From contig JAWAEU010000001.1 in NCBI GenBank assembly GCA_038891055.1, positions 1,475-65,474 on the forward strand: DNA of 64,000 nucleotides. The letters run 5' to 3'. Both the position numbers and the translations under genes were made by a program. Under the pieces are notes generated by a model that was not told the origin of the DNA, did no database searches, and worked only from the letters and a program-made list of their open reading frames with translations. Origin of the DNA: Candidatus Anstonellaceae archaeon. GTDB taxonomy: Archaea; Micrarchaeota; Micrarchaeia; Anstonellales; Anstonellaceae. Numbering within the stretch: position 1 is the stretch's first letter; each line of letters begins with the position of its first letter. This document shows, piece after piece, positions 5,669 to 62,717 of the stretch.

Positions 5669-6130
5669 TTAGTCGTAGAGGCACCTACCAGCTATTGGTC
5701 TTACTCCTACTTGAGAAAGATTAGAAATTTCAGCACTATCATAATAGAGAACAATATTATAGCTAAAATAATCATAGTTTGGGCTGCATTGAGTCAAACC
5801 AGAGATTGAAATAGTCTTTTCTGCCCCTGGGCCAAATGTCCAGCCAGAGCCAAGAGAGGCAGAAAAATTTCCAGCCTTTAGGGATTTTAAAATTAAGCGC
5901 TTAGTATCAGTATTTTTTATTTTTAAATACAGGGTAGAATTTGATTGCACCCACTCTACAATAGCAAATGGCCTTGTGGAACTCCAATAAGTTTTTGATT
6001 CAGATTCCATAGCTGTAGCTGATGAATCTGAAAACCCACTTAAAAGCACAATTCCAATTAAGGAAATGATTAGTACAATTGCTATTAAAATTAAGTATTC
6101 CGCAGCTGCTTGCCCTCTAATATAAATCAC
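5669..6130 (-). CDS. Archaeal type IV pilin-like protein with class III signal peptide (DUF361-like)
   Basis: MIYIRG|QAAAEYLILIAIVLII places a prepilin cleavage motif (R/K-G-Q) before a hydrophobic helix. The C-terminus has two conserved Cys (…TQCSP…GRCLYD). GTG start directly after an in-frame stop. Paralogous to 34772-36285. Confidence 0.6.
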   Translation of the reverse strand: MIYIRGQAAAEYLILIAIVLIISLIGIVLLSGFSDSSATAMESESKTYWSSTRPFAIVEWVQSNSTLYLKIKNTDTKRLILKSLKAGNFSASLGSGWTFGPGAEKTISISGLTQCSPNYDYFSYNIVLYYDSAEISNLSQVGVRPIAGRCLYD

Positions 6131-16962: not shown

Positions 16963-17028
16963 ATAAAACAACCCCTTGAGTGTAAAAATTAATAAATAAA
17001 GGCTTTTAAAACTTTCCAAAAGCAAAAA

Positions 17029-17100
17029 AGCCCCCGGCGAGGATTGAACTCGCGACCTCTTGCTTACCATGCAAGCGCTCTACCACTGAGCTACGAGGGC
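17029..17100 (-). tRNA. tRNA-Thr (anticodon GGT)
   Basis: Reverse strand GCCCTCGTAGCTCAGTGGTAGAGCGCTTGCATGGTAAGCAAGAGGTCGCGAGTTCAATCCTCGCCGGGGGCT folds as a cloverleaf with T-loop TTCAATC and anticodon loop AUGGUAA. GC-rich island in AT-rich DNA. Confidence 0.8.
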
Positions 17101-25667: not shown

Positions 25668-25838
25668 AAAATTTTAAAGAAGAAAAATTTTAAAAATAGA
25701 TAATGCTGCTAAATTATCCTGTTAATTTTCTTCTAATAATTTTTAGCATTTTTTGAACTTATTGAATATTGACTAATTTGCTAAAAAAAATATTAAATTA
25801 GAATCATAAAATTAGTGTAGAATAAAAAAATTTAATAT

Positions 25839-25950
25839 GTCAGCAACAACTGGCTTTCCCGCCAGATGGCAGTAACGGCCAGTCACAAGCAGGCTTAACT
25901 TCCGAGTTCGAAATGGGATCGGGTGTTACCCTGCTCTTATGGTCGCTGAC
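25839..25950 (-). rRNA. 5S ribosomal RNA
   Basis: Reverse strand GTCAGCGACCATAAGAGCAGGGTAACACCCGATCCCATTTCGAACTCGGAAGTTAAGCCTGCTTGTGACTGG…GTTGCTGAC contains the conserved CCGAUCCCAUUUCGAACUCGGAAGUUAAGC block, with terminal helix GUCAGC/GCUGAC. GC-rich island. A TATA-like element (TTTATATAA) lies ~25 nt upstream. Confidence 0.8.
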
Positions 25951-28091: not shown

Positions 28092-28224
28092 TGCCAAGGG
28101 GGGGATTTGAACCCCCGACTTCCAGATTTCTCAACGTGCCAAAAATATATCATTGCAAAAGCTCAACACTCATAAATAAAAATTTATGAGTCTGGCACTC
28201 TAAACCAGGCTGAGTTACCTTGGC
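28092..28224 (-). tRNA. tRNA-Met or tRNA-Ile2 (anticodon CAT), elongator type, with a ~57-nt intron at the canonical 37/38 position
   Basis: Reverse strand reads GCCAAGG-TA-ACTC…GAGT-G-CCAGA-CTCATA[A-intron…GAGAAA]TCTGG-AAGTC-GGGGGTTCAAATCCCCC-CCTTGGC-A. The intron segment TTTATGAGT can pair with the anticodon loop ACTCATAAA, as expected for a BHB splice structure. 133 nt total. Confidence 0.75.
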
Positions 28225-29759: not shown

Positions 29760-29830
29760 AACAAGTTTTTGCAAAATTTGATTTAGTGCGATAAATTTTT
29801 ATTTTATAAATTAGATATAAAATTTGTAAA

Positions 29831-30046
29831 TGGCCCTCGAGCCACTTTCGCTGCCTATTTGGAGGCAGTGAGGAAGCTCTACCCACCAGGTTTTATTAGC
29901 CAACCACATAAAGTGGGGGCATCTTGAGCAGAAACGCTACCCATTTTGGGATGAAACGGCAGGATGCCCTGGCTAGCTGGTGCAAGGCCAGTTTTGGCCG
30001 CTAAGTCAAATGTGGCTTAAAACAGAAGGTAGACTATTGAGGGCCA
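29831..30046 (+). ncRNA. rnpB: RNase P RNA candidate (minimal, ~216 nt)
   Basis: GC-rich island with terminal helix GGCCCUCGA…UUGAGGGCC (P1). The P4 strands UCUACC (after AGGAAG) and GGUAGA (after ACAGAA) match CR-I/CR-V context, and GGGAUGAAACGGCAGG is CR-II-like (GGGUGAAANGGUG). A TATA-like TTTATAAAT lies ~30 nt upstream. Confidence 0.55.
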
Positions 30047-30055
30047 TTTTATAAA

Positions 30056-31726
30056 TTATTTTTTGATTACTTTTAAAAACTCTTTTAGTTCTTTGATTTG
30101 ATTCTCCACATATTCTTCAACTTTGTTTATATCTTCTTGTGAAATAATATCTAATTTACTTAATAATCTGAAGCCCTCTTTGTCTTTTTTCAATAAATCT
30201 AAAAGGAAAGCCGTTCTTTCTTTTTCTGCTATGACTGAATATAAGTTTTTTAGTATTTGTTTTAGTTTTTCTTTTTCAGCTATTAGATCTTGTTCTTGAC
30301 TAACAGCCACAGTTTGGGGGTTTAGTTGTGCGCTTTCAGAAAGTTTTTCTACAGTTTGAGTAGGTTGCTCTTCAATCAGATTAACTAAAGACTGCTTTTC
30401 TTTTTCTCCAAGACCCCCATATTTAAGAATTTTTTGAATTATGTTTTTTGGAATAGAATCAAAAAATCTTGTTTTTTTTACGGGTTTGCCTTCCTTTTCC
30501 AATATTTTTATAATTTTTTCCTTTGCTTTGGAATTTTTTAGGATAGTAGTATCTTTTTTACACTCTTCTAAAATTTCTTTTTTTATTTGTTTGTCTTTTA
30601 TTTTTGAAACTAGGAGTAGTTTAGAATTGAGCCCAAAATCTTCTCTGAAAAATAATTTTTTGTAAAATTCATCATCTGCAGAGATACTTTGTATAATATA
30701 CGATTTTTCTTTTTCTTTTAATTCAACAAAGTTTAGTAGAACTTTTTTTAGAATTTCATTTAAATTTGAGAATTCTGGGGTTTTTTGTGCAGATAATAAG
30801 CTTTCTGAATTCACTTGTTTTTTTGAGCTACTTTTTACTCCTAAGTGGTGCATTATATAACTTGGGACTTTTAAATTTTGTTCTTCTATTTTTTTTAAAA
30901 TCTCATTTTTAATACTTTTTGCTGCAGAAGCAGCTATGTAGGATCTAGTCCAATTTCTTGCATTTGGGTAAAGAAACAAATCCACAAGAATCTTGTCATC
31001 TTTTGGTATTTGTTTTATTTTCTTGATCAAATCAATCTGTTTTTTGTTAGATAGAAAAAACTCATTTAGTTTTTCTTTATCAATTTCTTCTTTTTTGCAA
31101 TTATCCAAGAGTTCAATTATTTTTTTAATATTTTGTTCTACATTAGCTTTAGTTGTATCATCTATAATCTTGTCTGCGAGTTTTGTAATATCAGAATTTT
31201 CAGCTTTTGACTCTAAAACCATCAAAATCCATTGAATGGTTTCTTTTGTCTTTTGATCCAATAATTCTATTTTTTTAGCACTAAGAAGAGATCCCATCAC
31301 TTCGATTATCTTTTTACAATCCTCCAGACTATAGTCTCTGCCGTATCCGATCGCTCTTATTACTGCACCCTTATAATCTGTTTTCAATTCTTTTATTAGT
31401 GTGTTGGCACAAAAGTTAGCTATTTTAGAAGGCTCCTCGCCATTTGCAACCAATTCCAAATAAGAGCGATTAGAGGGAAGAATATGAATATTTTTTTCTA
31501 AAATTTCTTTTGCATTTTCAGATTTTTCTATAGTGTATACTAAGATCGTTTCAACGCATTTGCTCCATCTTTGTGACTCTAAAAGTTCTTTTGCCTTTTC
31601 TTCATTTTTTTGTTCATTAATTTTAATAGCAGTACTCGTTTCTTCTGGTATTATTTCCTTATATTTATCAAAGTTTTCTTTACTTACTTTTAGTTGTTCT
31701 TGCTTTTTTATAATATTGCGTTCCAT
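30056..31726 (-). CDS. Hypothetical K/E-rich soluble protein
   Basis: 556-aa ORF with no TM segment and no recognisable motif. Confidence 0.45.
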   Translation of the reverse strand: MERNIIKKQEQLKVSKENFDKYKEIIPEETSTAIKINEQKNEEKAKELLESQRWSKCVETILVYTIEKSENAKEILEKNIHILPSNRSYLELVANGEEPSKIANFCANTLIKELKTDYKGAVIRAIGYGRDYSLEDCKKIIEVMGSLLSAKKIELLDQKTKETIQWILMVLESKAENSDITKLADKIIDDTTKANVEQNIKKIIELLDNCKKEEIDKEKLNEFFLSNKKQIDLIKKIKQIPKDDKILVDLFLYPNARNWTRSYIAASAAKSIKNEILKKIEEQNLKVPSYIMHHLGVKSSSKKQVNSESLLSAQKTPEFSNLNEILKKVLLNFVELKEKEKSYIIQSISADDEFYKKLFFREDFGLNSKLLLVSKIKDKQIKKEILEECKKDTTILKNSKAKEKIIKILEKEGKPVKKTRFFDSIPKNIIQKILKYGGLGEKEKQSLVNLIEEQPTQTVEKLSESAQLNPQTVAVSQEQDLIAEKEKLKQILKNLYSVIAEKERTAFLLDLLKKDKEGFRLLSKLDIISQEDINKVEEYVENQIKELKEFLKVIKK

Positions 31727-31905: not shown

Positions 31906-32121
31906 TTAGGCGTTTTTCATCTTTGCCTCATACACATAGCCGTCTTTTCCGATGTAGTACATAAAGCCTGGCTTTTTTTGTATTTTTTCAGTGCCAACTT
32001 TTTTCTTTTTTCCTTTTTTGTTGTGTTTCATCGGAGAGGCCCAAACATAGCCGTCCTTTCCTACATAGTATATATATCCCTCTTCTCTTTGAATTTTCTC
32101 ATTTCCAACTTTCTTTCCCAT
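31906..32121 (-). CDS. Hypothetical mini-protein made of two tandem ~33-aa repeats
   Basis: KKVGNEKIQREEGYIYYVGKDGYVWASPMK and KKVGTEKIQKKPGFMYYIGKDGYVYEAKMK are internal duplicates within 71 aa. Confidence 0.4.
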   Translation of the reverse strand: MGKKVGNEKIQREEGYIYYVGKDGYVWASPMKHNKKGKKKKVGTEKIQKKPGFMYYIGKDGYVYEAKMKNA

Positions 32122-32243: not shown

Positions 32244-34598
32244 CTAATGAAGCAATCCGATTTTCCAACTTGCTGCAATAACAAATTCTCTACAAATAAG
32301 TCCAAAATAATTCGAAGAATAAGAAGCCACTATATCAAAATTTCTTATCAAAAAGTTGTTATAACCAACCTCAACTCCAAAAGTATAATTTGGAGTGATT
32401 CCTCCTTTATTTATATATCTATTAAATTTTGGTTCTAATATATTTTTTTCAATTCCTATAAAACAATTGACAAAAAAATTTTTCTTTTCTGCTTTAGCTC
32501 TAAATTCGCATTTTGGATTTGCATTTAAAAAATTGAAGAAAGAACTAAAACTTAACTTATTTTCAAACCCATAGAGTTGGAAGTAGTTTTCAATACTCAA
32601 CCCAATTTCCATTACAGAATTTTTTTCTAAAAATTTTTCTACTGAAATTCTAAGGCTAGGTTCGACTGTTGTATTTTCCAAAAAGTTTTCAACAAACTTG
32701 AAATAAAAATCAAGATAATAGAGAATATCTTCATTTAGAAAGTCTTGAGGCACTACAAAATTTGTTATGTTTAGATCACCGTATTCAATTTTTTTATTTC
32801 CTCCAATTAAGTACAAAATTCCAAATTCTTCTCTTAGTATTATTTTGTTATTTTCTATCTTCTTTTCATCGGTTCTTTTAAAATTTAGCCCTAATAAATG
32901 GGTATTGTTAATTTCAAAAGTTAAGTTAGAATTCTCTATTTTTCCAAAAGCATAAGGTAAATAGTATGCGCCTATTTTTGTTTTGTCTAATTCTAAGTTT
33001 AAACCTATTGAATTAAAGTATGAAAATAAATTTTTTATAGAGCCAGTTTCATCAACTTTAATTGGGGCAATTACACTTTCTTTTTTGTTTTGAATTAAAG
33101 GATTTTGTGACTTACCAACTAAGTATAAAAATGGTTTTTTATTTTCTTTATAACTCCTTCTTGTTGGAGGGTTAATTTGCGTCTGTAAACCTTCATTTTG
33201 ACTTATAGAATTACTATTTTGAACTTCTTTTATTTTTCTTGAATATTTTTTAATCTCTTCGTTTTTATATATTTCTACTTTAGTGGGAGTATTTAATATA
33301 AAATAGGCTGGAAATAAAATTCTGAAATTAGGATCCAGTATTTCTTTTTTTTCTATTTCTCTATGTAAAAGAAAGATAACGTTAGAGCCTAGATCTCTAA
33401 TTTTAAAAATTTTGAAATCTTCTAACTGGTCACTTTTTTTTAAAACGAGTTCTTTGACTGCCTTTGAGGAGAGGAAAATTCCATTTTCTTCATAATGAGC
33501 TATTAAGACATCTAAAAACATATTTACTTTGTTTTGTGCGTCAAAAAAATTTATATTTTGTGAAGGTAGAGTTACATTGATTTTAATTCTTATTTCTGGC
33601 AATATCAACCCATACCAATGATATATTTTTGCTATTTTTCTTATAGATTTACTTCTTTCTATTTTTTGCCTTAAGTTTTCTTTAAATTTATAAACCTCCT
33701 CTTTTGAAGGATGAATTTTTAATTTATCTAAAAGATTTTTTACCTCTTTTGCATATTCTTGGGCTTCAAAATCTTTCGAGTTTTGAAGTTCTCTTAAAAA
33801 ATTTTCAATTTCTAAAATAATTTTTTCTAAGGGTTTATCTTCCTCTAAGTATAGCACAATTGCCGTTTTTTTTATTTTTATTATTTTAGCCAAACTATCT
33901 GCAATCTCTGTAGCTAATTTGCTATTGTGATATTTTCTCCATTTATTGTATAACCCCAATTCAGAAGCAGAGGCTACGGAGATTATGTTGTCTAGATATT
34001 TACAGTAATTTATATAGATCATATCCTTTTCATCTTTTTCTAATTGTGTTTTGTAGAGAACCTCTCTTACAGCTCTTTTTGAATGAAACAGAAAATCCTT
34101 AGATTCTTTTTTTAATCTATTATAAATCTCTTGCTTTATTTTTCCATACTCCAGCTTTTTATCTTCTAAATCCAATAGAGTTACTCTAGCGACTTTTTCA
34201 AATGCGACAAGCACTGCATCTAAACAAAGCTCTTTCACATTTTCTTCCATTTTTTTTATATTTTCCTCAGATAAAGTATATTTTTTTTCGATCTCTCTAA
34301 ATATTTTAATAGTATCTGCATCAAAACTAATTTTTTCTTCAAATTGTAAAAATGGACTTTCGCCTTCTACAACATAAAAATCTTTTTGATTTTCCACGAC
34401 AAATTTCTTCTTTTCTTTATAACTTTGGACATCCAGCCAACCCTTTTGAGAAGATATTTTATTTTCTTTAGATTTAATGAATTCATTTTCTTTTGAAATT
34501 AGATTTTGATTTGTATTAAAAAAATTAAAAAAAATAGTAAACGCTACTGCTGTTTTTTTAAATTTATTAAATTTCTCTCTAAGCCTTAAGAAATGCAT
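32244..34598 (-). CDS. Hypothetical large protein (N-terminal hydrophobic segment, beta-rich C-terminal region)
   Basis: 784-aa ORF. N-terminal TAVAFTIFFNFF; the C-terminal ~250 aa show an alternating hydrophobic pattern. Confidence 0.45.
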   Translation of the reverse strand: MHFLRLREKFNKFKKTAVAFTIFFNFFNTNQNLISKENEFIKSKENKISSQKGWLDVQSYKEKKKFVVENQKDFYVVEGESPFLQFEEKISFDADTIKIFREIEKKYTLSEENIKKMEENVKELCLDAVLVAFEKVARVTLLDLEDKKLEYGKIKQEIYNRLKKESKDFLFHSKRAVREVLYKTQLEKDEKDMIYINYCKYLDNIISVASASELGLYNKWRKYHNSKLATEIADSLAKIIKIKKTAIVLYLEEDKPLEKIILEIENFLRELQNSKDFEAQEYAKEVKNLLDKLKIHPSKEEVYKFKENLRQKIERSKSIRKIAKIYHWYGLILPEIRIKINVTLPSQNINFFDAQNKVNMFLDVLIAHYEENGIFLSSKAVKELVLKKSDQLEDFKIFKIRDLGSNVIFLLHREIEKKEILDPNFRILFPAYFILNTPTKVEIYKNEEIKKYSRKIKEVQNSNSISQNEGLQTQINPPTRRSYKENKKPFLYLVGKSQNPLIQNKKESVIAPIKVDETGSIKNLFSYFNSIGLNLELDKTKIGAYYLPYAFGKIENSNLTFEINNTHLLGLNFKRTDEKKIENNKIILREEFGILYLIGGNKKIEYGDLNITNFVVPQDFLNEDILYYLDFYFKFVENFLENTTVEPSLRISVEKFLEKNSVMEIGLSIENYFQLYGFENKLSFSSFFNFLNANPKCEFRAKAEKKNFFVNCFIGIEKNILEPKFNRYINKGGITPNYTFGVEVGYNNFLIRNFDIVASYSSNYFGLICREFVIAASWKIGLLH

Positions 34599-34771
34599 AA
34601 AATTTATATTTGAAACTTCTTATATATATAACTTTACATTTTAAGACTATTTTATTAATACTTGTCATCTTGTTATAACATGGAGTTTATACTTATTTGG
34701 GATTGAACTTGAAAAAAGAAAGATTTATATTTTTTATCCTTTTTATCTCTATTAACTAAGGAGGGAAAATT

Positions 34772-35251
34772 ATGGCTTTCAAAAAAGGACAAGGTGCAAC
34801 TGAGTATTTGGTTTTGTTAGCAGTTGTTTTAATAGTGGCAATGGTAGCTATAGCATTATTGGGATTCTTCCCAGGCATGGCATCAGATGCCAAAATTACT
34901 CAATCTGATGCTTATTGGAGAGGACAAGCAACACCATTTGCAGTAGCAGAACATGCCAGAAGCTCATCTGATCAAAACCTAATATTAGTATTAGAAAACA
35001 ATGCAGGAGAACAAAAGCAACTTACAAATATTACAATTTCAGGATCTGGAATTTCTATGACATATAACACCACAACGTCAGAGAGATTCTTCTCTGCCGG
35101 GGAAAGAAAAAAGATTACTGTGAACTTAGGATCCAATTGTACTGCTGGAACAACTTATGAATATAATTTAGTATTTACATACACAAATCCAGATGGCTCT
35201 ATTACAAAGAAACAATTTGGTGAAAAACCACTTGTAGGAAAATGCTCCTAA
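34772..35251 (+). CDS. Archaeal type IV pilin-like protein (class III signal peptide), tandem copy 1
   Basis: MAFKKG|QGATEYLVLLAVVLIVAMVAIALLG, conserved YW(R/K)G and two C-terminal Cys (GSNCTAG…GKCS). GGAGGG RBS upstream. Confidence 0.6.
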   Translation: MAFKKGQGATEYLVLLAVVLIVAMVAIALLGFFPGMASDAKITQSDAYWRGQATPFAVAEHARSSSDQNLILVLENNAGEQKQLTNITISGSGISMTYNTTTSERFFSAGERKKITVNLGSNCTAGTTYEYNLVFTYTNPDGSITKKQFGEKPLVGKCS

Positions 35252-35300
35252 AGAAGGAGCCTCTTTTCCTTTTATTTTTTTAAATTTTTGAGGTGAGTTT

Positions 35301-35771
35301 TTGTTAGGCTATAAAAAAGGCCAAGGTGCGAGTGAATATCTAATTTTGTTAGCAGTTGTTTTAATAATCGGAATTATTGCGATTGCTCTTTTAGGTGGAT
35401 TTACAGAAATGGGAGGAGGAGCAAAAGAAACAGAATCTCGACAATATTGGAAGGGAGTAATAAGGCCATTTACAATCCAAGATTGGGCACAGAGAGGTAC
35501 TAATGTCTATCTTACTATTAAAAATATGGAGCCCACAAAATTAGTAATTAATAACATAACAATAGGAAATGTAACTTATAGCCCACCTGGGGGAATTTCA
35601 TTTGGCGGTGGAGCCTCAAAAACAATTACAATTGGAGGATTTACAGCATGTAATGCAAGTTCTTATGATTATTTTGAATACCCAATAACTATAGTGTATT
35701 CTTCTTCAGATATTTCTGGAAGAATACAAAAGGGAGAAAAACCAATAGTTGGCCCTTGCCAAGTAGAATAA
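35301..35771 (+). CDS. Archaeal type IV pilin-like protein (class III signal peptide), tandem copy 2
   Basis: MLGYKKG|QGASEYLILLAVVLIIGIIAIALLG and C-terminal Cys pair (TACNASS…GPCQVE). Clearly paralogous to copy 1. Confidence 0.6.
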   Translation: MLGYKKGQGASEYLILLAVVLIIGIIAIALLGGFTEMGGGAKETESRQYWKGVIRPFTIQDWAQRGTNVYLTIKNMEPTKLVINNITIGNVTYSPPGGISFGGGASKTITIGGFTACNASSYDYFEYPITIVYSSSDISGRIQKGEKPIVGPCQVE

Positions 35772-35832
35772 AGATAGGACTCCACTAATCTATACTACCT
35801 AATTTTTATATTTTCTTTTTTTAATTTGTTAT

Positions 35833-36285
35833 ATGAAAAAAGCCCAAACTTCTGTAGAGTATATAATTTTAGTAGCAATTATTTTAGTTATTGGTTTGGT
35901 GGTTTTGACATTAAGTGGACTTTTTCCATCTTTTTCTTTTTCTACTGAAGCTTATAGTTCCAAAAGTTATTGGGATAGCGCAATGCCAATTTCAATAGTA
36001 GACAGTTACCAAAGCAACTCCACACTCTATCTTGTTTTAAAAAATAGAGCTAACACCATCATCAACATAAGTTCAATTAAATTGGTTTATGGCTTAAATG
36101 AAATTTATAGCTATTCTCAAAATATTATTTTATTTCCAGCTCAAACTCAAAACATTTCAATTTCAGCAAAAAGTTGCCAAAAATCACAAACAGTTTTTTA
36201 TGATATTACCTTTGTTTATTCTACTACTTCTACAGAAAATCTAACTTATAGAGGTATAAAACCTCTATATATCCTCTGCCAATAA
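35833..36285 (+). CDS. Archaeal type IV pilin-like protein (divergent), tandem copy 3
   Basis: MKKAQTSVEYIILVAIILVIGLVVLTLSG, SKSYWDS and C-terminal Cys pair (KSCQKSQ…YILCQ). Confidence 0.5.
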   Translation: MKKAQTSVEYIILVAIILVIGLVVLTLSGLFPSFSFSTEAYSSKSYWDSAMPISIVDSYQSNSTLYLVLKNRANTIINISSIKLVYGLNEIYSYSQNIILFPAQTQNISISAKSCQKSQTVFYDITFVYSTTSTENLTYRGIKPLYILCQ

Positions 36286-36289
36286 TGGT

Positions 36290-36784
36290 TCAGTCCTTAT
36301 TTTCGTTTTGATATATCCCACAATAAATTGAGGTTGCCTCTTTTTCCAATCTAATAAAAATTAATTGAATAACTTTTGCATTTTTATATAAAATTAAACC
36401 ATTTGGGTTAAATACTACTAAAAGCCCCTCACTTCTTCCACTATAGCCAGGGTCCCATATTGCATTTATAGCGGCTGCCCCTGCTCTAAGAAGAGAAGAG
36501 CGAGACTGTGCAATAGCAATTGCATTCTTTGGTACATTTATTATCTCGTTAAATATTATTTTATATGCTCCTGGTAACAATTTTATTTTATCTTCTTCGT
36601 CCCACTCTATTTTTTTTGTTTTTGGCAATAATCTTTTTTTGTTCTCTCCGTCAATCTGGCCAATGTCCTCAAAAGTATGAATCTCTCTTATAGTTAGATC
36701 AAAACCAGCAGGTTGTTGTTGATGTGAATAAACATAATTTTCTATTAATTTTTCTTGAAGTATTTTTGATCCTTCTATGATCAT
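36290..36784 (-). CDS. dUTPase/dCTP deaminase superfamily protein (dUTPase-like)
   Basis: PAGFDLT, SRSSLLRAGAAAINAIWDPGYSG follows the dUTPase/Dcd motif pattern (S-x-x-R-x-G, xDPGYxG). 164 aa. Confidence 0.6.
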   Translation of the reverse strand: MIIEGSKILQEKLIENYVYSHQQQPAGFDLTIREIHTFEDIGQIDGENKKRLLPKTKKIEWDEEDKIKLLPGAYKIIFNEIINVPKNAIAIAQSRSSLLRAGAAAINAIWDPGYSGRSEGLLVVFNPNGLILYKNAKVIQLIFIRLEKEATSIYCGIYQNENKD

Positions 36785-38634: not shown

Positions 38635-39153
38635 TTATTGGTTTTTTGCGATTTTTCCAAATTTTTTATATGGTTTTTGAGTAGGCTGTGCGGTGTAAGA
38701 AAGACAGATTTGACTAATTCGCATTCCGCTGTACAATTTAATAGAATAAGGTGCAAAATTTACTATCTCTAATACTTGCCTGTTAGAACATCCTGGCTGA
38801 ACTAAAGAAGAAGTAACATGTACTGCTAATCCAATTCGAGCATATCTACTTCTGCCCTCCAACCTGCCCATTATATTTGGAGCTAGAGTTATCTTCTCTT
38901 TTGTCACTCCAAGACAAAGTTGGCTTGGTGCAAGGACTACTGAATTAGCAGTTATTTTTTGAAAAATGTCTTTTGACTCTATTTTCTTTAAATCTACTAA
39001 CTTGTTTTCAAATTCTTTTTTTATAAACCAAAATTCATTGGATAGGGTTAGATCGATAGAGCCTGATCCTATCTGATCCTTTTTAAGTCTTGGCTCTATT
39101 TTAATATTGCCATTTTTTATTTCTTTTAGTATGTCTTTGTCTGAAAGTTGCAC
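38635..39153 (-). CDS. dcd: dCTP deaminase
   Basis: LSDKDILKEIKNGNIKIEP…GSGSIDLTLSNEFWF…GRSRYARIGLAVHVTSSLVQPGC aligns to E. coli Dcd MRLCDRDIEAWLDEGRLSI…VDVRLGNKF… Probable GTG start at 39153; the track's upstream ATG at 39288 would overlap the divergent gene. Confidence 0.7.
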   Translation of the reverse strand: MQLSDKDILKEIKNGNIKIEPRLKKDQIGSGSIDLTLSNEFWFIKKEFENKLVDLKKIESKDIFQKITANSVVLAPSQLCLGVTKEKITLAPNIMGRLEGRSRYARIGLAVHVTSSLVQPGCSNRQVLEIVNFAPYSIKLYSGMRISQICLSYTAQPTQKPYKKFGKIAKNQ

Positions 39154-39234
39154 AAATAACTTATAATAAATACTTTTAAATAACTTATCCAAAGTTATAA
39201 AATCTTTTTTTACTATAATTATAATAGTGATTGA

Positions 39235-40026
39235 ATGGTAAAGTTTGATAGAAAAAAATTTCTCAAAAAAGCAGAAGAGGGAGTGCAAAAAGAACTATCT
39301 TCTCCTGACCACCTAATTATTCAAACAGTTAATGCCTTGGATGAGCTAAATAAGATATTCAACCTATGCTTTGAGAGGGTGAGTGAATGGTATGCCATTC
39401 ACTTTCCAGAATTGAAATTAAAAGAACCTAAAAAATATCTACTTGTAGCAAGTTTTTTTAACAGAAAAAATCCAAGTAAAGAAAAATTAGAAGAAATTTT
39501 AGGGCAGCAGGCAAGCAGTGTTTTACAACTTTCAAAAAATTCAGTTGGAGTTATTTTAGATGACGAGGACTTTGAACCTATTAAAGAATATGCTCTTTTA
39601 GGTTTAGAGATCTATGATAAAAAAGAAAAATTAGAAAACTATCTAAAAAAACTTACAAAGAGAGTTGCACCAAACTTGGCTTATTTGTGTGGAGAAATTT
39701 TAGCTGCAAGATTAATAGAAAAAGCAGGTGGATTGAATAAATTGGCAACTTTTCCATCTTCTACTATCCAAGTTTTAGGGGCAGAAAAAGCTTTGTTCAA
39801 ACATTTAAAGTCAGGATCTCCCCCTCCAAAACATGGTATCATATTTCAACACCCCTCTATTAGTGGAACTTCTAAAAAACTTAGAGGAAAAATAGCTAGG
39901 ACCTTAGCCTCTAAAATAGCAATAGCTGCAAAGGCAGATGCTTTCTCAAAGCAATTTATTGCTCAAAAACTCAAAGAAAAATTTGACCAAAGGATAAAAA
40001 ATATTTTAAATAAAGGTGGTGGATGA
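39235..40026 (+). CDS. Nop-domain protein (Nop5/Nop56/58 family), short form lacking the usual N-terminal domain
   Basis: LCGEILAARLIEKAGGLNKLATFPSSTIQVLGAEKALFKHLKSGSPPPKHGIIFQHPSISGTSKKLRGKIARTLASKIAIAAKADAF is a clear Nop (snoRNP) domain. Only 263 aa. Confidence 0.65.
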   Translation: MVKFDRKKFLKKAEEGVQKELSSPDHLIIQTVNALDELNKIFNLCFERVSEWYAIHFPELKLKEPKKYLLVASFFNRKNPSKEKLEEILGQQASSVLQLSKNSVGVILDDEDFEPIKEYALLGLEIYDKKEKLENYLKKLTKRVAPNLAYLCGEILAARLIEKAGGLNKLATFPSSTIQVLGAEKALFKHLKSGSPPPKHGIIFQHPSISGTSKKLRGKIARTLASKIAIAAKADAFSKQFIAQKLKEKFDQRIKNILNKGGG

Positions 40027-45642: not shown

Positions 45643-48600
45643 TTGAAGAAATTAGTCTTTTTTTTATTTTTGTTTATTTTTTTAAATTTTGTTTTTAGTG
45701 AAGCTGTAGAAGATATAAAAATATCCTCACTTAATATAAATGCCACATGTAAAGAATTTTGGAAAAAAGACTTGCCGCCCAAACTTTTTGTGAGTAATCT
45801 TTTAGATGGTAAAAAAATCTACTCCCCATATTTGTTTTATACTTTAGAATCACTAAATCTAATTAATTGGTCAATAGATGAGGCAGATCCTACTACACTG
45901 GATGTTAACATTCCTTCTTCGTTTAACAGAGAAAAGCAATTATTAAAAGACTCATATTCTTTAGCAAAAGAAGCTAAAAATTACTATGAGTTAGCATATT
46001 TAAAATATAAAGAAATTGCACTTACTCTTAAATTTTTTAAATTACTCATGCCCATAGTTTTTCCACCATTACTATTTTTAGGAATTCAAAATGAAATCGA
46101 ATTATTGATTGATTTTTTAAACCAACCATATTCCCTAGATCTAGAGGACGATATTTTAATTTACAATATTTTTCTATTAGAAGACTATTCTTTTTATTGG
46201 GAAAAATCAATTAGTGCTGCAACTTCTTCATTGAAATATTGCACTTCTGCGCTCAACTCTTTTTTTATTTCTGTAGAAAAAAAAGCAATTTTACTTTATG
46301 AAAATGGTATTGAGGACCAAGCTTATTATGGAAAGCCAAAAGAAATTTATAATGAGTGGAAGGAGTTTGTGCAACTATCTAAAAATTATTCTATTAATAA
46401 AATAAGAAGTTCAACTGAACCTGCCATGTATGCTTGGATCTACTTTTTAGCTAACTCTGTCCAACAAACTTGTAATTTAGAAAAAATTTTTCCCTATTTT
46501 TATCCCATGGACTATTTGTTTAATAATGCATGCATCTTAAAAAATGGAAATCTGTTAGACTTTGTAATCAAAATGGATAAAAAAATGTCCATGGCTTTAG
46601 AAAGCCTGCAAGCAGAAGGAGAAGCTGCTTTCAATTCTACGTCTGCTCTAAAAACAAAAGTGGAAGAAAAAATAAAAAAGATCAATTTAGAAGAACCAAT
46701 GAGATTTAGCGGGGATGAAATATTTTCTATTCAACTCTCTGGTATTAAAATCTCAAATATAAGCGGATCTATAGAGGAGCTTTACGATTCTATGAATTCT
46801 TATTTTGCAGAAGGACAATCTTATTTCAACTCTGCTAGCAAATCTAAAAAATTGGTAGAAAAAATCTTACTTTATAAAAAATCATATTCCAGTTATGAAT
46901 TAGCAATGGAAGCAGCAGAACAACTAGAAGAGCTCTTAGCTCAAAAATCAAATATTTCTTGCTCTTATGCAGAGTCTGAATTAAACTCCCTTTCTGCTAA
47001 AATTAAAAAAGTTCAAACACAAAAAGACCATTCTCTTTTGGCAAATTTACTTGAGACTTATAACTCTGCCTCACTATTAATTGACAAAGCAAAAAATTCT
47101 AAAAAGCTTTCTGAGAAATTTTTAAACTGTAAAAAAGCTTATTTGATTATTAGCAACAGTTATAGTTCTGATGCCTCCCTTTCTATTTCTGAAGCTCTGT
47201 TAAAGAAATTTTTAGAATACATCACAGCTGGAGAAAAGATGGGGGCAGATGTTTCATTATACAAAAAAAATTATGAGCAATTTAAAAAATTACTTAGCTT
47301 AAATTATTCCTCTTTGTCTGAAGATATAGAAGCAAATATTCTCTCGATTAAAAGTTATCTTAATAATTTCATGGAAGAAGAAAACTCTCTCCACCAATCC
47401 ATTTTATATTTAGTAGAAAATTCTAAAGATACTCAAAAAGAATTTTTCAATTCCTATAATAAAAAACTAAGCCAATATAGAGAAAATAACCAGTGGAATT
47501 TATACGCTTTTAAAAATAGAAATGCTCTTATTAGTTTTTTAAGATCTTCTTTGAAACAATTGCAACAGAATATTGAGAATTATCTAAAGGATGCGATTTG
47601 TAAAAATGCCAACCTACACAAAACAACTCAAGAGGCAATAACTGTTGATCAATTATTAAAAATTTCAGGTAGTTGGGAAAGTTCAAATCCATTTAATATT
47701 GCATTCCCAAATGGACTTCAGTTTTCTTGTAAGGTAGATTTGGATATATCAAATAATGCTATAAAGTCAAAATCCTCAAACATTGAAAAAGTGATTATAT
47801 CAAATAAAACCCTTCAGATAGTTTTGTCTTCATTAGCTCCGCTTGAAAATATCTACATTAATTTTTCAGAAGATAAAAAACCGTTTTCTTCTTCACTACA
47901 AAATTGCCTTTTGACAATTAGTCCAAACAATAGGATCTCTTTAGACTCAAATTATACTATAAATGGCCTCTATTCTTCAGAAATTGTCCAATTTTTTGTG
48001 CCTTGGGATGTTGTGCTAGATAATACTCAAGCTAAATTATACAATGGATTTTCTTTTTATGATGGTGTTCTGAGCGTCAACAACAATAACTCTCCCGCGA
48101 TAAAATTTATGTTTCCACTAAATTCTCCAAAAAACCAAATTGGGGTTGCAATAAGATCTAACCTTCCAAGAAATTTAGAGAGTAGTGAAGAAAAAATAGA
48201 AGCCCAAAAAGATGGAAAATATCTCAATTCTTATAAATTAAAATTAAATTTCCCACAGTGCAAGAATATTTTTCTACAAAGAACAGAAAAATTTTCCAAC
48301 ATCTCGAATCTAAAGGTAGTATCTTCAGAAGCTAGTGTAAAAAACCTAAAACATTATTCGCTGGGAGAATCTGTTTATTGGGAGGCTTTATTAAATTCTA
48401 AATCAGATGGAAGTATAACAGTAGTTGTATCTTTTGAATTTGCAGATTTAGAGAGGTGGTTTAATTCTTCTTACAGCGAACTTTTGGCTAAGGCTAAAAA
48501 GTACAATGATGAGTATTGTATAAAATTGTTAGAAAGTGCACTTCAATCGTTTAGATCAAAAGATTATAATACAACAACAAAGAAATTAAATGAGGTTAAA

Positions 48601-49752
48601 AAACGCTTAGATTTACTTGAATTAAAAAAAGAAAAAGTGGAACTAGCACAGCAAAAAATAAAACTCATGGGGGAAAGAGTAGAGGCTCTTGAATCGCTTA
48701 TTTCCCAGGACACTAAAAAAATTTCAACCATTAGAAGTTTTGCAAATAATTTAAAAAATGCAATCGAATCTGCAAATAGAACACTGCTTGCAGACCCTGA
48801 TAATTCTATAGCTACTATAGAAAAAGCTAATGCTAAATTAAATTCAGAAATTTTAAAGCAAATAAACACCATACAACCAAAAGCACAAAAAAAGCTTGAT
48901 AATTTAATTTCAATCTACCTAGATGTTGGGTTAGATCAAGAAAATTTATCCTCAATTGCAGATGATATGGCAAAAGTAAGAGAGTTAATTATATCTGATG
49001 ATTTAATAGCCTCCCTAAAACTCCTCTATGCTGTAGAAGATAAAATAGAAGTAGAGGAAAAACTAGCAAATGATCTACTTGTCCAACAATTAGCTGAGAT
49101 GAATACTAAAAAAATCAATTTAGAGAAAATGGCGCAAGAATTAGTATTAAAATTAGATAAATATTTCTTAGAAGCAAAAACATTGGAGGAGGCAAAAACA
49201 CTATTTAAACCCCCCCTAGCAACTAAAGACGTTCAAAACTATAAAAAACCTCTTTTAAATTTATTTAAAGGCTGGGGGGAAGAAAAAACCAATTCCACAG
49301 AAATTTTAGTAAAAAATTTGAAGAAAAACCAAATAATGTTAAAAACTGCCCAAGAAGTAATAAATTCAACTTCCCAATCCTACTCTAAGGCACAAGATAA
49401 GCTGGTCAATAAAGCAAATTCTCTTCTGGCAACTGCAAAGATTCTTCTAAATTCTCCTTCTGCCAAACAAACAGAGTTAGAGGAAAAAATTTCCAAAGCT
49501 CAAGAGCTTATAAATTCTGCTGAATACTCCCAAGCAATAGTTTTATTAGAAAAATTAATGAGGTCTTTTGAACCTAATTCTACATCTTCTGACTTAGAAA
49601 AAGAAAACCTACCATTATTTGAAATAGTAGTATCTGTTGTATTTGTTTTAGCAATAGCATATATTTTGCTTAAGAGTTATAAACCAAAACCACTCCAACA
49701 AAAAAAAGAAATTAAAACCCTAAAAAAATCTCAAGAAGAACAAAACCCTTAA
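45643..49752 (+). CDS. Giant (1369 aa) secreted coiled-coil-rich surface protein with C-terminal TM anchor
   Basis: Signal peptide MKKLVFFLFLFIFLNFVFSEA, long heptad-like K/E/L segments, NxS/T sequons and a C-terminal TM (FEIVVSVVFVLAIAYILL). Confidence 0.6.
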   Translation: MKKLVFFLFLFIFLNFVFSEAVEDIKISSLNINATCKEFWKKDLPPKLFVSNLLDGKKIYSPYLFYTLESLNLINWSIDEADPTTLDVNIPSSFNREKQLLKDSYSLAKEAKNYYELAYLKYKEIALTLKFFKLLMPIVFPPLLFLGIQNEIELLIDFLNQPYSLDLEDDILIYNIFLLEDYSFYWEKSISAATSSLKYCTSALNSFFISVEKKAILLYENGIEDQAYYGKPKEIYNEWKEFVQLSKNYSINKIRSSTEPAMYAWIYFLANSVQQTCNLEKIFPYFYPMDYLFNNACILKNGNLLDFVIKMDKKMSMALESLQAEGEAAFNSTSALKTKVEEKIKKINLEEPMRFSGDEIFSIQLSGIKISNISGSIEELYDSMNSYFAEGQSYFNSASKSKKLVEKILLYKKSYSSYELAMEAAEQLEELLAQKSNISCSYAESELNSLSAKIKKVQTQKDHSLLANLLETYNSASLLIDKAKNSKKLSEKFLNCKKAYLIISNSYSSDASLSISEALLKKFLEYITAGEKMGADVSLYKKNYEQFKKLLSLNYSSLSEDIEANILSIKSYLNNFMEEENSLHQSILYLVENSKDTQKEFFNSYNKKLSQYRENNQWNLYAFKNRNALISFLRSSLKQLQQNIENYLKDAICKNANLHKTTQEAITVDQLLKISGSWESSNPFNIAFPNGLQFSCKVDLDISNNAIKSKSSNIEKVIISNKTLQIVLSSLAPLENIYINFSEDKKPFSSSLQNCLLTISPNNRISLDSNYTINGLYSSEIVQFFVPWDVVLDNTQAKLYNGFSFYDGVLSVNNNNSPAIKFMFPLNSPKNQIGVAIRSNLPRNLESSEEKIEAQKDGKYLNSYKLKLNFPQCKNIFLQRTEKFSNISNLKVVSSEASVKNLKHYSLGESVYWEALLNSKSDGSITVVVSFEFADLERWFNSSYSELLAKAKKYNDEYCIKLLESALQSFRSKDYNTTTKKLNEVKKRLDLLELKKEKVELAQQKIKLMGERVEALESLISQDTKKISTIRSFANNLKNAIESANRTLLADPDNSIATIEKANAKLNSEILKQINTIQPKAQKKLDNLISIYLDVGLDQENLSSIADDMAKVRELIISDDLIASLKLLYAVEDKIEVEEKLANDLLVQQLAEMNTKKINLEKMAQELVLKLDKYFLEAKTLEEAKTLFKPPLATKDVQNYKKPLLNLFKGWGEEKTNSTEILVKNLKKNQIMLKTAQEVINSTSQSYSKAQDKLVNKANSLLATAKILLNSPSAKQTELEEKISKAQELINSAEYSQAIVLLEKLMRSFEPNSTSSDLEKENLPLFEIVVSVVFVLAIAYILLKSYKPKPLQQKKEIKTLKKSQEEQNP

Positions 49753-49849
49753 ATTTAAAAAAGTACCAAAAAATCGACAAAATCTATTTGAAAAGATAGA
49801 ATTTGGGTGAAGATATTCCGACAAACTAGATTTTAGCTAGGTGTGGTAT

Positions 49850-52740
49850 TTTGGTTTAGTAGCAGCAGGCTACACCGCTCGCTTTTGGCTTGCGGCTTAC
49901 ACCTCTGCCCTATCAAACGGATCTGCTATCCGCCCATTAGCCTGACTCGTTTTGAGAGCTGCTTCGACCTTAGATGCTTTCAGGTCTTATCAGCTAGCGC
50001 GTAGCTGCCCGGCGATGCTATTACACAACCGGTACACCAGAGGCGCCGTACCCGTGTTCCTCTCGTACTCATGGGTACTTACTCTCAGTCAGGCAGCACT
50101 TCCAGGAGATACTACCGTACTGTCTCGCGACGTACTGAACCCAGCTCATGTAGGACTTTAATGGATGAACAACCCAACCCTTGGTGGCTCCTACACCACC
50201 AGGATGTCCTAAGCCGACAGCGATGTACCAAACCGCGGGGTCGATGTGTACTCTCGCCCGCGACGAGCCTGTTACCCCCGGGGTAGCTTGTCTGACAGCT
50301 TGGAGCCCCATCAAAAGGCTACCAAGGTTCGTTAAGCCCGGCTTTCGCCTCTGCTCTCCACGCTGTTAGGAGAACAGTCAGCCCAGCATATGTCTTTAAC
50401 CCTTAACAGTGCATTTCTGACGCACCTAAGCTGAGCATTGGGCACCCTTGTTTATTTATCGAGGGTGTACCGCCCCAGCCAAACTATCCACCTGATGCTG
50501 TCTACCCTCTAGGAGTATAAGCAGTACAAGGCAACTAAAATGGTGTTACATCGTCGCCTATCTAATGCCCGAAAGCATTAGCTTAGCGGCTCCCATTTAC
50601 TCTATGTTAGCCACCCTATACCACAACATCAGGCTATAGTAAAGCTCCACGGGGTCTTCGTTTCCCCCTGGAAGTCCACTGCATACTCACAGTGTAGTAG
50701 GTTCACCAGGTCCTGGCATGGGACAGTGGGAGAGTCGTTACGCCCTTCATGCAAGCCACCAATTAAGCGGCGAGGTATTACGCTACCTCAAGAGGGTCAG
50801 AGTTACCCCCGCTCTTTGCCGGCGCTTAGGCCCGTTGTAACAGGCTTTCACGTACCGGTAGTGAGCAGGCGTCACCCGCAATACTAACCGTTTCCGGTTT
50901 GCTGCGAGTTGTGTTTTTGATAAACAGTCGCTCTCCCCTTGTCACTGCGACCTGCTGATGCTTAAAACAACAGCAGGCACCGCTTCTCCCTAAGTTACGC
51001 GGCGAATTTGCCGAGTTCCCTATGCCAAGTTATCCTGCCACGCCTTGGCTTGTTCAGCCAGCAGCACCTGTATTAGTTCTAGGTACGGTTAGCCAAGATC
51101 GCTTTTTACTCTCTTTTCATGGGACCCAGGAATTGGGCAACTTGCGCATTCCTAAGGTTATACCATTTCTCCTGACAATCAGACTCCATGGTATTGCCTT
51201 AGTTAGACAGCCGAAGCTGCTTGCCCTATCCCAAGCCGTCGAGAGTAAAACTTGCGTTACCGCATCTACTTGGCTAGGACCGGAATATTAACCGGTTTCC
51301 CTTTCGCATAGTGGGAATTACCCCTATGCTTAGGACCGCCTAACTCTAGGCTGACGAACATCTCCTAGAAAACCGTGTGCTATGCGGCGTCCAGGATTTT
51401 CACCTGGATATGCTGTTACTAATACCAGGATATTCATAACTGGTCGGTCCATAGGAGCTTACGCCCCTACTTCTATCCAACCAGCTCGCCCCCCTACCAG
51501 CCTTGCACCCATAGAGGTGCAAGCTCTAGGGTATCGGTACTGGGCTTAGTCCCGAGCCTCTTTGAAGATTATACTCTAGACTGGTCCGCTATTACGCGTT
51601 GTTTAAAGGATGGCTGCTTCTAAGCCTACCTTCCAGCTGTTTTTGAGTATAACCTTCTTTGCGATTGACACTTAGCCCAGATTTAGGGACCTTAACCCTA
51701 GGTACGGTCGTTCCCGTAACGGCCTGCTAGCTTACCCAGCAGAACCCGACTCCCTGCTTCTTCGGCGAGTATAGATTCGAGGTTTGACGATCAGGTGAGG
51801 CCTTTCGACCCCGTTCCTGATAATCAGTGCCCTACCCTACACTCTACCTCCGCAGAGGCTATACTGAGATATACTTCGAGGGGAACCCGCTATTGCCGAG
51901 TTCGATTGGACTATCACCCCTACCCGTGGGTCACCCAAGCAGAATATACTAGCACTGGTTGCGGTCCTCCATCCACCTTCAGGTGGACTTCGACCTGCCC
52001 ACGCGTAGATCACATCGGCTTCGGGTCTGAAGGGAGTGACTGCTCGCCATTTCTGACGAGGGGGTAAACCCAACTTGCTTTCGCTTCGGCTCTCGCCTTG
52101 CCACGCCCTTCAACTCCCTGGCCCTTGCTTCGAGAAGGACGATATGACAGTGGGACTGTTCTATCGCGCTTAGCTTCACAGCTAAGCACTTTTAGAACAG
52201 TTATCCTTTCCTGCCATATCAAACTGTAGCCACTTAGTTTCAAGTTCTTTTCACCCCCCGTTTTGGGGAACTTTTCAGCTTTCCCTCGCGGTACTAGTGC
52301 GCTATCGGTCTTGGGTTATATTTAGCATTGGAAGTTGATACTCCCAAATTCACGCCACATACTCAAGTGACGCTACTCTTAAATGGCCTCTTGCCATATT
52401 CTGTCCGCACACGGGGCTATCACCCTCTATGGCTCAGCTTTCCAGCTGATTGTGCTCCAGAACATGGCTAAGTAGCCCCCTACATCTCCAGTCAGTTACC
52501 TGACTTGGATTTAGGGACGTGCTCTTTGGCTTTCACTCACCGTTACTCACCAAATCCCATTTTGGTTTCTCTTCCTGCCGGTACTAAAATGTTTTAATTC
52601 CCGGCGTGAGTTGCCCATCACAGGGACAAGGCCAGACCCCAGGATCGCAGGATTCATGCTCCTCCCCTGGGCTTATCCCAGCTTGACAGGTGGCCATTTC
52701 TACCCAAGCCAAGCTATCCACTAAGTGGCATAACAGCATA
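49850..52740 (-). rRNA. 23S ribosomal RNA (about 2.87 kb; ends approximate)
   Basis: Sharp GC-rich island. The reverse strand contains the sarcin-ricin loop AGUACGAGAGGAAC, domain V GGGGAUAACAGGCU and the 5' domain …CACUUAGUGGAUAGCUUGGCUUGG…GAUAAGCCCAGGGGAGG. It is flanked by a long inverted repeat (49805-49829 vs 52758-52798) typical of archaeal pre-rRNA processing stems. The track ORFs inside it are artefacts. Confidence 0.85.
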
Positions 52741-53030
52741 CCACACCTATTTGCTCTCTAGTTTGTCACTGCAAATGCAATTGGAACTATCTTCACCCAA
52801 TGCCATTGCCAAAAATTGGCAATGGTGAGGCAAAGCCTCTTGCTCTTGGCAGCTGCCAAGATGCAAAAAATACACTAATCTATATGTAAGATAAAATGCA
52901 TCGCAACCAACTTTTTAACAAGCATAGTTGGTGCTGATGTCAGCCTAAAATGGCTGAATTTTAAGTAGAAATAAATATATACCAACAAATATATAAATCT
53001 TTTGGTTGAAAATCTAAACTAATCTATAAA

Positions 53031-61001: not shown

Positions 61002-62528
<1,527 letters not shown>

Positions 62529-62717
62529 AAGCTTTGGAGATGTTTGTGCAAGGCCTTTTTCTGTCCTTGGAATAAATCCAAAGAGTGCTCTGCTTTATCT
62601 ATTTTTGATAAAAAGTCGCGCATCTCCCCTGAACCATGCCAAAAAATCGATGAGTTGCAATTTTTTAAGATAACTTTAAATACTTTTCCGTCGTAAATAA
62701 TATGTAAAAAATTCACG

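Follow-up and report, generated by a model that had tools for sequence, protein, structure and literature searches.

Four paralogous type IV pilin-like genes in a 64-kb stretch of a Micrarchaeota genome

A 64,000-nucleotide stretch of the Candidatus Anstonellaceae archaeon assembly GCA_038891055.1 (contig JAWAEU010000001.1, positions 1,475 to 65,474; hereafter the window) holds three open reading frames (ORFs) in tandem on the forward strand, A (34772..35251, 159 aa), B (35301..35771, 156 aa) and C (35833..36285, 150 aa), and a solitary fourth, D (5669..6130, 153 aa), on the reverse strand. An earlier note on this DNA had described them as three tandem type IV pilin-like paralogues plus a fourth, and the ORF listing has all four at these coordinates; the NCBI annotation also has D as a 153-aa gene. 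The locus raises the question of whether these proteins are subunits of a surface filament or exported proteins of another kind, and whether the trio arose by recent expansion. We conclude that A–D are probably archaeal type IV pilin-like proteins in precursor form, belonging to the DUF361/UPF0333 or ‘class III signal peptide’ kind, and that the paralogues appear to be old.

The four proteins are homologous over their full length, with BLASTP identities of 29–46% and E-values from 6e-7 to 2e-35. The closest pair is B and D (46%), and within the trio the mutual identity is 29–39%. The similarity stayed when the hydrophobic N-terminus was trimmed, only the A–C pair no longer being reported. Alignment of the four sequences gave 22 invariant columns, including the Gln and Glu of the signal motif, a Tyr-Trp pair, a Pro and both Cys residues. 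The YW(R/K)G block read by the earlier note as common to all four is present in A and B only; C has YWDS and D has YWSS, which leaves the Tyr-Trp and the following Pro as the invariant part. A hidden Markov model (HMM) of the family, searched against six-frame stop-to-stop translations of the window, recovered exactly A–D (E 5e-74 to 6e-48; 4.6e-54 for A and 1.6e-59 for D), the next match having an E-value of 0.19, and two scans for the class III motif in all six frames likewise returned A–D only. The four-gene family in the window is real and far beyond chance. No NCBIfam family was found for any of its members.

Each protein starts with a basic leader of 4–7 residues. Gln comes next, at +1, then Glu at +5, and after these a hydrophobic, uncharged segment more than 20 residues long. 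The leaders and predicted mature starts are MAFKKG and QGATEYLVLL... in A, MLGYKKG and QGASEYLILL... in B, MKKA and QTSVEYIILV... in C, and MIYIRG and QAAAEYLILI... in D. Where the earlier note allowed Gln or Ala at +1, Gln was found there in all four, and the Gly/Ala variation lies at −1 (C reads KKA^Q, where ^ marks the predicted cleavage site). We compared the proteins with Pfam PF04021 (Class_IIIsignal, formerly DUF361/UPF0333), which has a gathering cut-off of 23.7 bits. A, B and C scored 25.4, 24.5 and 29.4 bits, above the cut-off, and D scored 19.3 bits, just under it, so the DUF361 comparison that the earlier note had proposed came out in favour of three of the four proteins. Its broader claim of a class III signal peptide on all four is borne out by these three Pfam matches and by the motif and hydrophobic helix seen in each of A–D. 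Despite its PF04021 shortfall D is, on the family HMM and on its identity to B, an unambiguous paralogue.

The Pfam score of D is a point in favour of reading A–D as ordinary Sec-dependent secreted or single-pass membrane proteins with N-termini that merely resemble class III signals. What sets class III signals apart from Sec signals is a cleavage motif ahead of the hydrophobic segment. In A–D the short leader runs at once into G/A-Q...E+5 and the hydrophobic stretch, and no A-x-A type site follows that stretch. The motif [KR][GA]^QxxxE[YF][LIVM] is present in 127 of the 128 family members over which motif and Cys statistics were taken, three of the four proteins pass a curated threshold, and family members in relatives are linked to type IV pilus (T4P) operons, as described below. 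Because the cleavage motif precedes the hydrophobic stretch, we rejected Sec signal peptides, and we consider this explanation barely credible. We also rejected an archaellin identity, since A–D gave no match to the archaellin domain (Arch_flagellin) at E≤1 and Pfam scans of the ~50 window ORFs found no fla genes that would provide an archaellum context.

AlphaFold2 models of B and C, built with family alignments, agree with the beta domain for which the earlier note had suggested such modelling: both show an N-terminal helical part of 40 residues and then a beta-sandwich. The model of B (predicted local distance difference test score, pLDDT, 84.5; predicted template modelling score, pTM, 0.65) has a helix at residues 10–52 and then about ten strands. 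The model of C (pLDDT 92.3, pTM 0.74) has helices at 8–29 and 34–49, broken at a Gly/Pro-rich SGLFP stretch, ahead of its sandwich. In Foldseek searches of the PDB with both models, the first match was the T4P pilin of P. calidifontis (8fk7; E 1.6e-4 for B and 3.5e-5 for C) and the second the AAP pilin of S. acidocaldarius (8q30; E 3.7e-4 and 7.9e-5); the top ten for B also included the P. arsenaticum pilin, the S. islandicus pilin and FlaF. When the family profile was compared with all PDB chains, the three best matches were again archaeal filament subunits, namely 8q30 (E 0.0011), 8fk7 (E 0.011) and 8rey (E 0.071). Each of these matches is modest alone, and jointly they point one way, to the predicted ‘lollipop’ shape of an archaeal pilin.

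The globular parts carry a conserved Cys pair. A–D contain exactly two Cys residues each: Cys123 (35138-35140) and Cys158 (35243-35245) in A, Cys117 (35649-35651) and Cys153 (35757-35759) in B, Cys115 (36175-36177) and Cys149 (36277-36279) in C, and Cys115 (5786-5788) and Cys150 (5681-5683) in D. The C-terminal pair noticed earlier is present in every one of the four proteins, with a spacing of 34–36 residues in place of the ~35–40 given for it. Among the 128 family members, the mature part contains exactly two Cys in 123, four in 4 and three in 1, the number being even in 127; the last two Cys are 33–50 residues apart (median 36), and the last one lies 0–4 residues from the C-terminus in 127. 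Because the Cys residues are strictly paired, even in number and conserved in position in an exported domain, we infer an intramolecular disulfide between the loop Cys and the near-C-terminal Cys. The pair can be regarded as a hallmark of the family, though it is not new to archaeal pilins, since the solved P. arsenaticum pilin has a disulfide between Cys139 of its C-terminal extension and Cys80 (PMC7347861). The globular parts of the family are also rich in N-X-S/T sequons, with 460 observed against 219 ± 12 in shuffled sequences, about a twofold excess. Such an excess is as expected for N-glycosylated archaeal surface proteins, and A, B and D (three sequons each) and C (four) may be glycosylated.

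We then asked how widely the family occurs. The protein B is identical to NCBI QXH71_04415 of Candidatus Anstonellaceae archaeon (Micrarchaeota, DPANN), which is encoded on the 881,330-bp contig JAVZBV010000001.1 of GCA_038874715.1. The corresponding stretch of that assembly is 99.84% identical to the window; since the identity is not 100%, the window comes from a sister assembly or strain. The window also has archaeal rRNA genes (23S, 16S and 5S) and an RNase P RNA, consistent with an archaeal origin. The contig P0199, considered as a second contig of this metagenome-assembled genome (MAG), belongs to another assembly and was rejected. A profile search of 5.8 billion proteins gave at least 1,409 matches, the best 120 all with E-values below 1e-40, and every match with a named organism was from Micrarchaeota; the database names of the matches were ‘hypothetical’, ‘class III signal peptide-containing protein’ and ‘UPF0333 family’. 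An exhaustive HMMER search of 1.84 billion representatives at 50% identity yielded 2,223 clusters at E≤0.001, and 1,164 when the limit was E≤1e-10. In a scan of one genome per GTDB species we found 76 loci, nearly all labelled Micrarchaeota, the exceptions being a few labelled only ‘archaeon’ and one 2.5-kb contig binned as Dehalococcoidales; the MAG of the window was not among the genomes that the scan gave. Judged by these homologues, A–D belong to a large, anciently diversified, phylum-wide and Micrarchaeota-specific family. They are ordinary archaeal type IV pilin-like proteins of the known DUF361 kind, and the Micrarchaeota family is not described as such in the literature searched.

Some relatives of these proteins are much larger. 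The beta-sandwich segment (profile positions 63–113) matches 15 stretches in P0288, a protein of 1,771 aa, and occurs inside other long proteins, e.g. P0341 (778 aa). About 30 of 150 listed family representatives are longer than 190 aa, many with an N-terminal pilin match and a further stretch C-terminal to it, as might be expected of adhesin-type pilins.

A pilin needs to be placed in the context of an assembly system, and here the evidence came from relatives. T4P genes have been reported in Micrarchaeota generally, including Anstonellales lineages (PMC8561730), and for the Micrarchaeota member Mia14 two T4P loci and a single FlaK-like peptidase have been described (PMC5498576). We fetched 86 loci around family genes, 1.18 Mb in total, and screened them for the T2SSE ATPase by regular expression; the strict expression gave no match and the relaxed one a single match, L027. 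In this locus, from a Ca. Micrarchaeum sp., a KaiC-like ATPase, DUF7504, a T2SSE ATPase (PF00437, E 2e-30), two T2SSF proteins and two family members are encoded in this order. In a second case (L088/L089) the order is KaiC, a 590-aa class III protein, several small proteins, T2SSE, T2SSF, T2SSF and a family member of 161 aa, which has the Cys pair and matches the family HMM with an E-value of 8e-46. The segment 5′ of T2SSE in L088 (4077-7966) encodes the 590-aa protein, which has a class III-like N-terminus (SRGQASMELLL...), a HemolysinCabind match and 12 Cys, together with four small proteins with hydrophobic N-termini; these five are candidates for minor pilins or an adhesin. T2SSE and T2SSF genes are present in the relatives L027, L088 and L087. 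In the Anstonellaceae MAG JAWBPP an operon of T2SSE and two T2SSF genes lies on one contig with no adjoining pilin, and the family pilins are on four other contigs.

Several observations weigh against assigning A–D to pili, in addition to the Pfam score of D. Pfam searches of the ~50 window ORFs found no T2SSE, T2SSF or A24 peptidase; their Pfam content consists of translation, nucleotide-metabolism, transport and surface-protein genes, and a scan for Walker A motifs and transmembrane segments in the window ORFs without a Pfam match revealed no machinery either, in agreement with the earlier note that the window encodes no prepilin peptidase, ATPase or platform protein. The ~7 kb beyond the left end of the window contain no pilus machinery. 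Of the 86 loci, 83 were without a T2SSE ATPase in the 10 kb around their pilin genes, the one ATPase found at such a distance was that of L027, and the linkage of pilin to machinery comes down to two independent cases. When the L027 ATPase was used as a query against the 5.8 billion proteins, none of the best 120 of 7,822 matches was on JAVZBV010000001.1, a result that is not evidence of absence.

The rarity of such linkage, most family genes lying apart from machinery, could be taken to mean that A–D assemble into a short structure of the pseudopilus or bindosome type, or remain on the cell surface as helix-anchored proteins. They would then resemble the Sulfolobus sugar-binding proteins and the archaellum stator FlaF, which have pilin-like N-termini. 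The large proteins that contain the beta-sandwich segment speak for the same explanation, since their presence means that the beta-sandwich is not exclusive to pilins. Against it, A–D have traits of filament subunits in their length of ~150 aa, in their one globular domain, which is small, and in the invariant Glu at +5. The structures that match them best belong to pilins that form filaments, and family members occupy the pilin position of two T4P operons. Moreover, unlinked stand-alone genes are the norm for archaeal major pilins: archaeal pilin genes are commonly found outside machinery operons, as singletons or tandems, and proved to encode major pilins where tested (Makarova et al., PMC4858521). 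We therefore consider a pseudopilus or anchored state unlikely, and the pilin-slot position of family members in the two operons is the support for their putative polymerization into surface filaments.

As pilin precursors, A–D would be inserted into the membrane by the N-terminal hydrophobic helix. An A24-family prepilin peptidase in the membrane, similar to EppA, PibD or FlaK, would then cut off the basic leader after [KR]-[G/A], leaving Gln at +1 and Glu at +5; in M. maripaludis the pilins are processed by a dedicated peptidase, EppA, and not by FlaK (PMC4858521). A T2SSE-family ATPase and two TadC/T2SSF-like platform proteins, which would be encoded elsewhere in the genome, would pull the mature subunits from the membrane. 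The subunits would polymerize into a thin surface filament with the N-terminal helices in the core and the ~110-residue beta-sandwiches outside, the outer domains being N-glycosylated and each stapled by the disulfide from the loop Cys to the near-C-terminal Cys.

The tandem arrangement of A, B and C on the same strand might point to a cassette of recent expansion, used for antigenic or phase variation. To evaluate this explanation we compared the order of the genes and their divergence among relatives. Best-hit analysis showed that the order A-type, B-type, C-type recurs in nine other loci (L007, L011, L012, L013, L014, L017, L019, L022 and L028), some of which hold one or two further copies. 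A dCTP deaminase gene adjoins the cassette in eight of the nine, as well as the partial cassette of L015, and aIF5B comes next after it wherever the contig reaches. Identities to the window proteins are 76% (A), 72% (B) and 51% (C) in L011 and 81%, 80% and 68% in L012, so that C, with orthologues at 51–68% where those of A and B are at 72–81%, is the most divergent of the four and the one that evolves fastest. The D-type orthologues are solitary; the one in L025 is 74% identical to D, and L009 keeps the phosphoglucomutase – pilin – NUDIX context. Tandem arrays of 2–5 family genes make up 36 of 98 gene clusters, a count in which strain copies and two duplicate loci are included, and the A-type is amplified to 4–5 tandem copies in L023 and in L024 (Ca. 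Anstonella stagnisolia), which lends the expansion some support.

Strains about 1% apart allowed a closer comparison. The B protein is identical in all six strain-level contigs, with 2–3 synonymous changes only. Between strains, A has 6 non-synonymous and 4 synonymous changes and C has 3 and 6, while aIF5B has 7 and 15. The changes in A cluster around the loop with the first Cys, where N122S removes a sequon, and N62D removes one in C; this pattern counts in favour of variation, but with such very small numbers it is a hint of surface diversification and not a variation cassette, and no hypervariability is seen among the strains. The nucleotide divergence of A and C is ~2%, at most twice the flank average, and that of B is 0.5%, below the average. 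The mutual identity of the trio is low, separate orthologues of A, B and C follow one another in unchanged order in the nine loci, D has syntenic orthologues of its own, and we noted neither repeats nor silent copies nor sites of recombination. Since the orthologous order is conserved we rejected recent duplication and antigenic variation: neither the recent expansion nor the antigenic variation proposed in the earlier note withstood the comparison, and a role of the trio as such a cassette is very unlikely. A, B, C and D appear instead to be old, functionally differentiated paralogues, not recent copies.

If the paralogues differ in function, A-type proteins could be the main or generic filament subunit and the B/D-type and C-type proteins specialized or minor subunits. 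We favour A as the main subunit because 112 of the 146 family ORFs found in other MAGs, among them the pilin-slot copies of both machinery operons, are closer to A than to B, C or D, and because A is amplified in some relatives, comes first in the cassette and has the clearest ribosome-binding site of the four genes, a GGAGGG Shine-Dalgarno-like sequence 6 nt 5′ of its ATG; this assignment is tentative and may easily prove wrong. The gene B starts with TTG after GAGGTGAG, and D with GTG. The AT-rich, divergent intergenic region between the 784-aa gene on the reverse strand and A (34599..34771) would carry the cassette promoter, with TTTATATTTTTT as a TATA-like stretch. Runs of T follow A (35252-35300) and B (35772-35832) and look like archaeal oligo-T terminators or internal promoters.

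The genes around the cassette were examined as well. The 784-aa protein encoded divergently from A (32244-34598, reverse strand) is rich in Lys, Glu and Asn and has no Pfam match. Its homologues are limited to close relatives, L011 giving 31% identity over 754 aa and L012 a short match, from which we conclude that it evolves fast. Because it lacks both a Walker A motif and transmembrane segments and is confined to close relatives, it was rejected as a pilus component. Next to it, 31906-32121 (reverse strand) encodes a 71-aa Lys-rich protein with two repeats (…EKIQ..G.(I/M)YY(V/I)GKDGYV…) and no Pfam family. This protein is 96–99% identical in species whose pilins are only 51–81% identical, and 79% identical in L019 and L041; in those relatives too its gene closely precedes the cassette and is on the other strand, and the protein may be a small nucleic-acid-binding or chromatin-like protein. 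A 556-aa ORF (30056-31726, reverse strand) is intact in the window, L002 and L005 and split into genes of 350 and 208 aa in GCA_038874715.1 and L003. On the other side of the cassette, dCTP deaminase-like paralogues at 36290-36784 and 38635-39288 (both reverse strand) flank aIF5B, an arrangement kept in the distant relative L007.

Elsewhere in the window, the rRNA genes are unlinked, with 23S at 49837-52745 (reverse), 16S at 61002-62529 (forward) and 5S at 25838-25950 (reverse), on differing strands and with protein-coding genes between them. The archaeal RNase P RNA lies at 29829-30048, and a 133-nt tRNA at 28092-28224 (reverse strand), identified by Rfam and not called by ARAGORN, probably contains an intron. 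Five large ORFs of 339–1369 aa without a Pfam family (45643-49752 and 56007-58142 and 59029-60816 on the forward strand, 13828-17070 and 53031-54050 on the reverse strand) each have an N-terminal hydrophobic signal, three of them with a C-terminal transmembrane anchor as well, and are probably lineage-specific surface proteins. The ORF 7506-8252 (forward strand), beside the phosphoglucomutase gene, has a weak match to lytic transglycosylase (SLT; E 0.01), and its 474-aa homologue in L009 (4020-5444) has an SLT match marked ‘weak’; the product is possibly a cell-wall-cutting enzyme in a DPANN archaeon.

Filaments joining DPANN archaea to other cells are known from microscopy. To our knowledge, the subunits of these filaments are mostly unassigned. 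One may picture a phylum-specific Micrarchaeota pilin family whose members combine an N-terminus of the DUF361 type with an N-glycosylated Ig-like domain and a disulfide staple at the C-terminus. In it, the A-B-C triad and D would build a filament of differentiated composition, the shaft subunits being distinct from those of the tip or adaptor, and this filament would physically link the cells to their partners, the beta-sandwich having been recruited into giant multi-repeat surface proteins; we regard this fuller picture as doubtful. Adhesion is the default role of such filaments (PMC5498576; preprint 10.64898/2026.04.22.720090; PMC4858521), and attachment of A–D filaments to a host is a conjecture; Anstonellales have among the largest biosynthetic repertoires of Micrarchaeota and are possibly less host-dependent (PMC12892359). 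The analysis names a concrete, abundant and easily recognized candidate filament family for Micrarchaeota, consisting of a conserved ordered triad and a solitary paralogue and tied to T4P operons in two relatives, and gives proteomics, antibody work and cryo-EM clear targets in the few co-cultures that exist for Micrarchaeota. The four ‘hypothetical proteins’ may now be annotated as type IV pilin-like, class III signal peptide proteins, and the current understanding of archaeal type IV filaments is unchanged.

Among known systems, the Epd pilus of Methanococcus maripaludis (clade 1 or ‘System 1’) resembles A–D in the short basic leader, in the Gly/Ala at −1 and in the QxSxExxxL motif (Gln at +1, Glu at +5, Leu at about +9), and the Micrarchaeota operons, with one ATPase and two TadC/T2SSF genes, resemble its machinery (PMC4858521; preprint 10.64898/2026.04.22.720090). 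Clade 1/System 1 has been reported in methanogens and some DPANN (the same two sources). In the Epd system and in Micrarchaeota alike, pilin genes lie apart from the machinery locus. M. maripaludis also has major and minor pilin sets (PMC4858521), analogous to the roles proposed here for A versus B/D and C. The likeness shown in sequence is, however, that of the N-terminal signature. The Epd major pilin arCOG06620 has ~70 aa and no globular domain (PMC4858521; preprint 10.64898/2026.04.22.720090), whereas mature A–D have 146–153 aa with a 110-residue beta-sandwich and a Cys pair and so do not fit the Epd-type major pilins. The KaiC-like gene beside the Micrarchaeota operons has been reported instead as a companion of clade 2 and 4B systems (PMC4858521), and the clade of the machinery appears ambiguous, the gene set being that of clade 1 and the KaiC-like neighbour that of clade 2/4B.

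The bacterial type IVa pilins (PilA/PilE) share with A–D a short basic leader that has Gly as its last residue, a Glu at position +5 and a hydrophobic alpha-1 helix with a Gly/Pro break, but have N-methyl-Phe at +1 in place of Gln and an alpha-beta roll in place of the all-beta sandwich; there is no detectable sequence homology, and the assembly machinery of A–D would be archaeal. In the bacterial D-region a C-terminal Cys pair staples the end of the globular domain, and the resemblance of the disulfide predicted in A–D to it is best read as analogy. The crenarchaeal T4 pilins (8fk7, 8q30, P. arsenaticum 6w8u and S. islandicus 6nav) differ from A–D in their low identity (11–21%, with profile E-values of 1e-3 to 1e-2, 6w8u being undetected by sequence), in the N-terminal motif, which in A–D is of the DUF361 type with Gln+1 and Glu+5, and in host lineage and machinery subsystem. 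On the other hand, they have the same N-terminal helix and Ig-like beta-sandwich and are the best fold and profile matches of the A–D family, and the P. arsenaticum pilin is N-glycosylated and has its globular domain joined by an intramolecular disulfide to a penultimate C-terminal Cys (PMC7347861), the arrangement that A–D would share.

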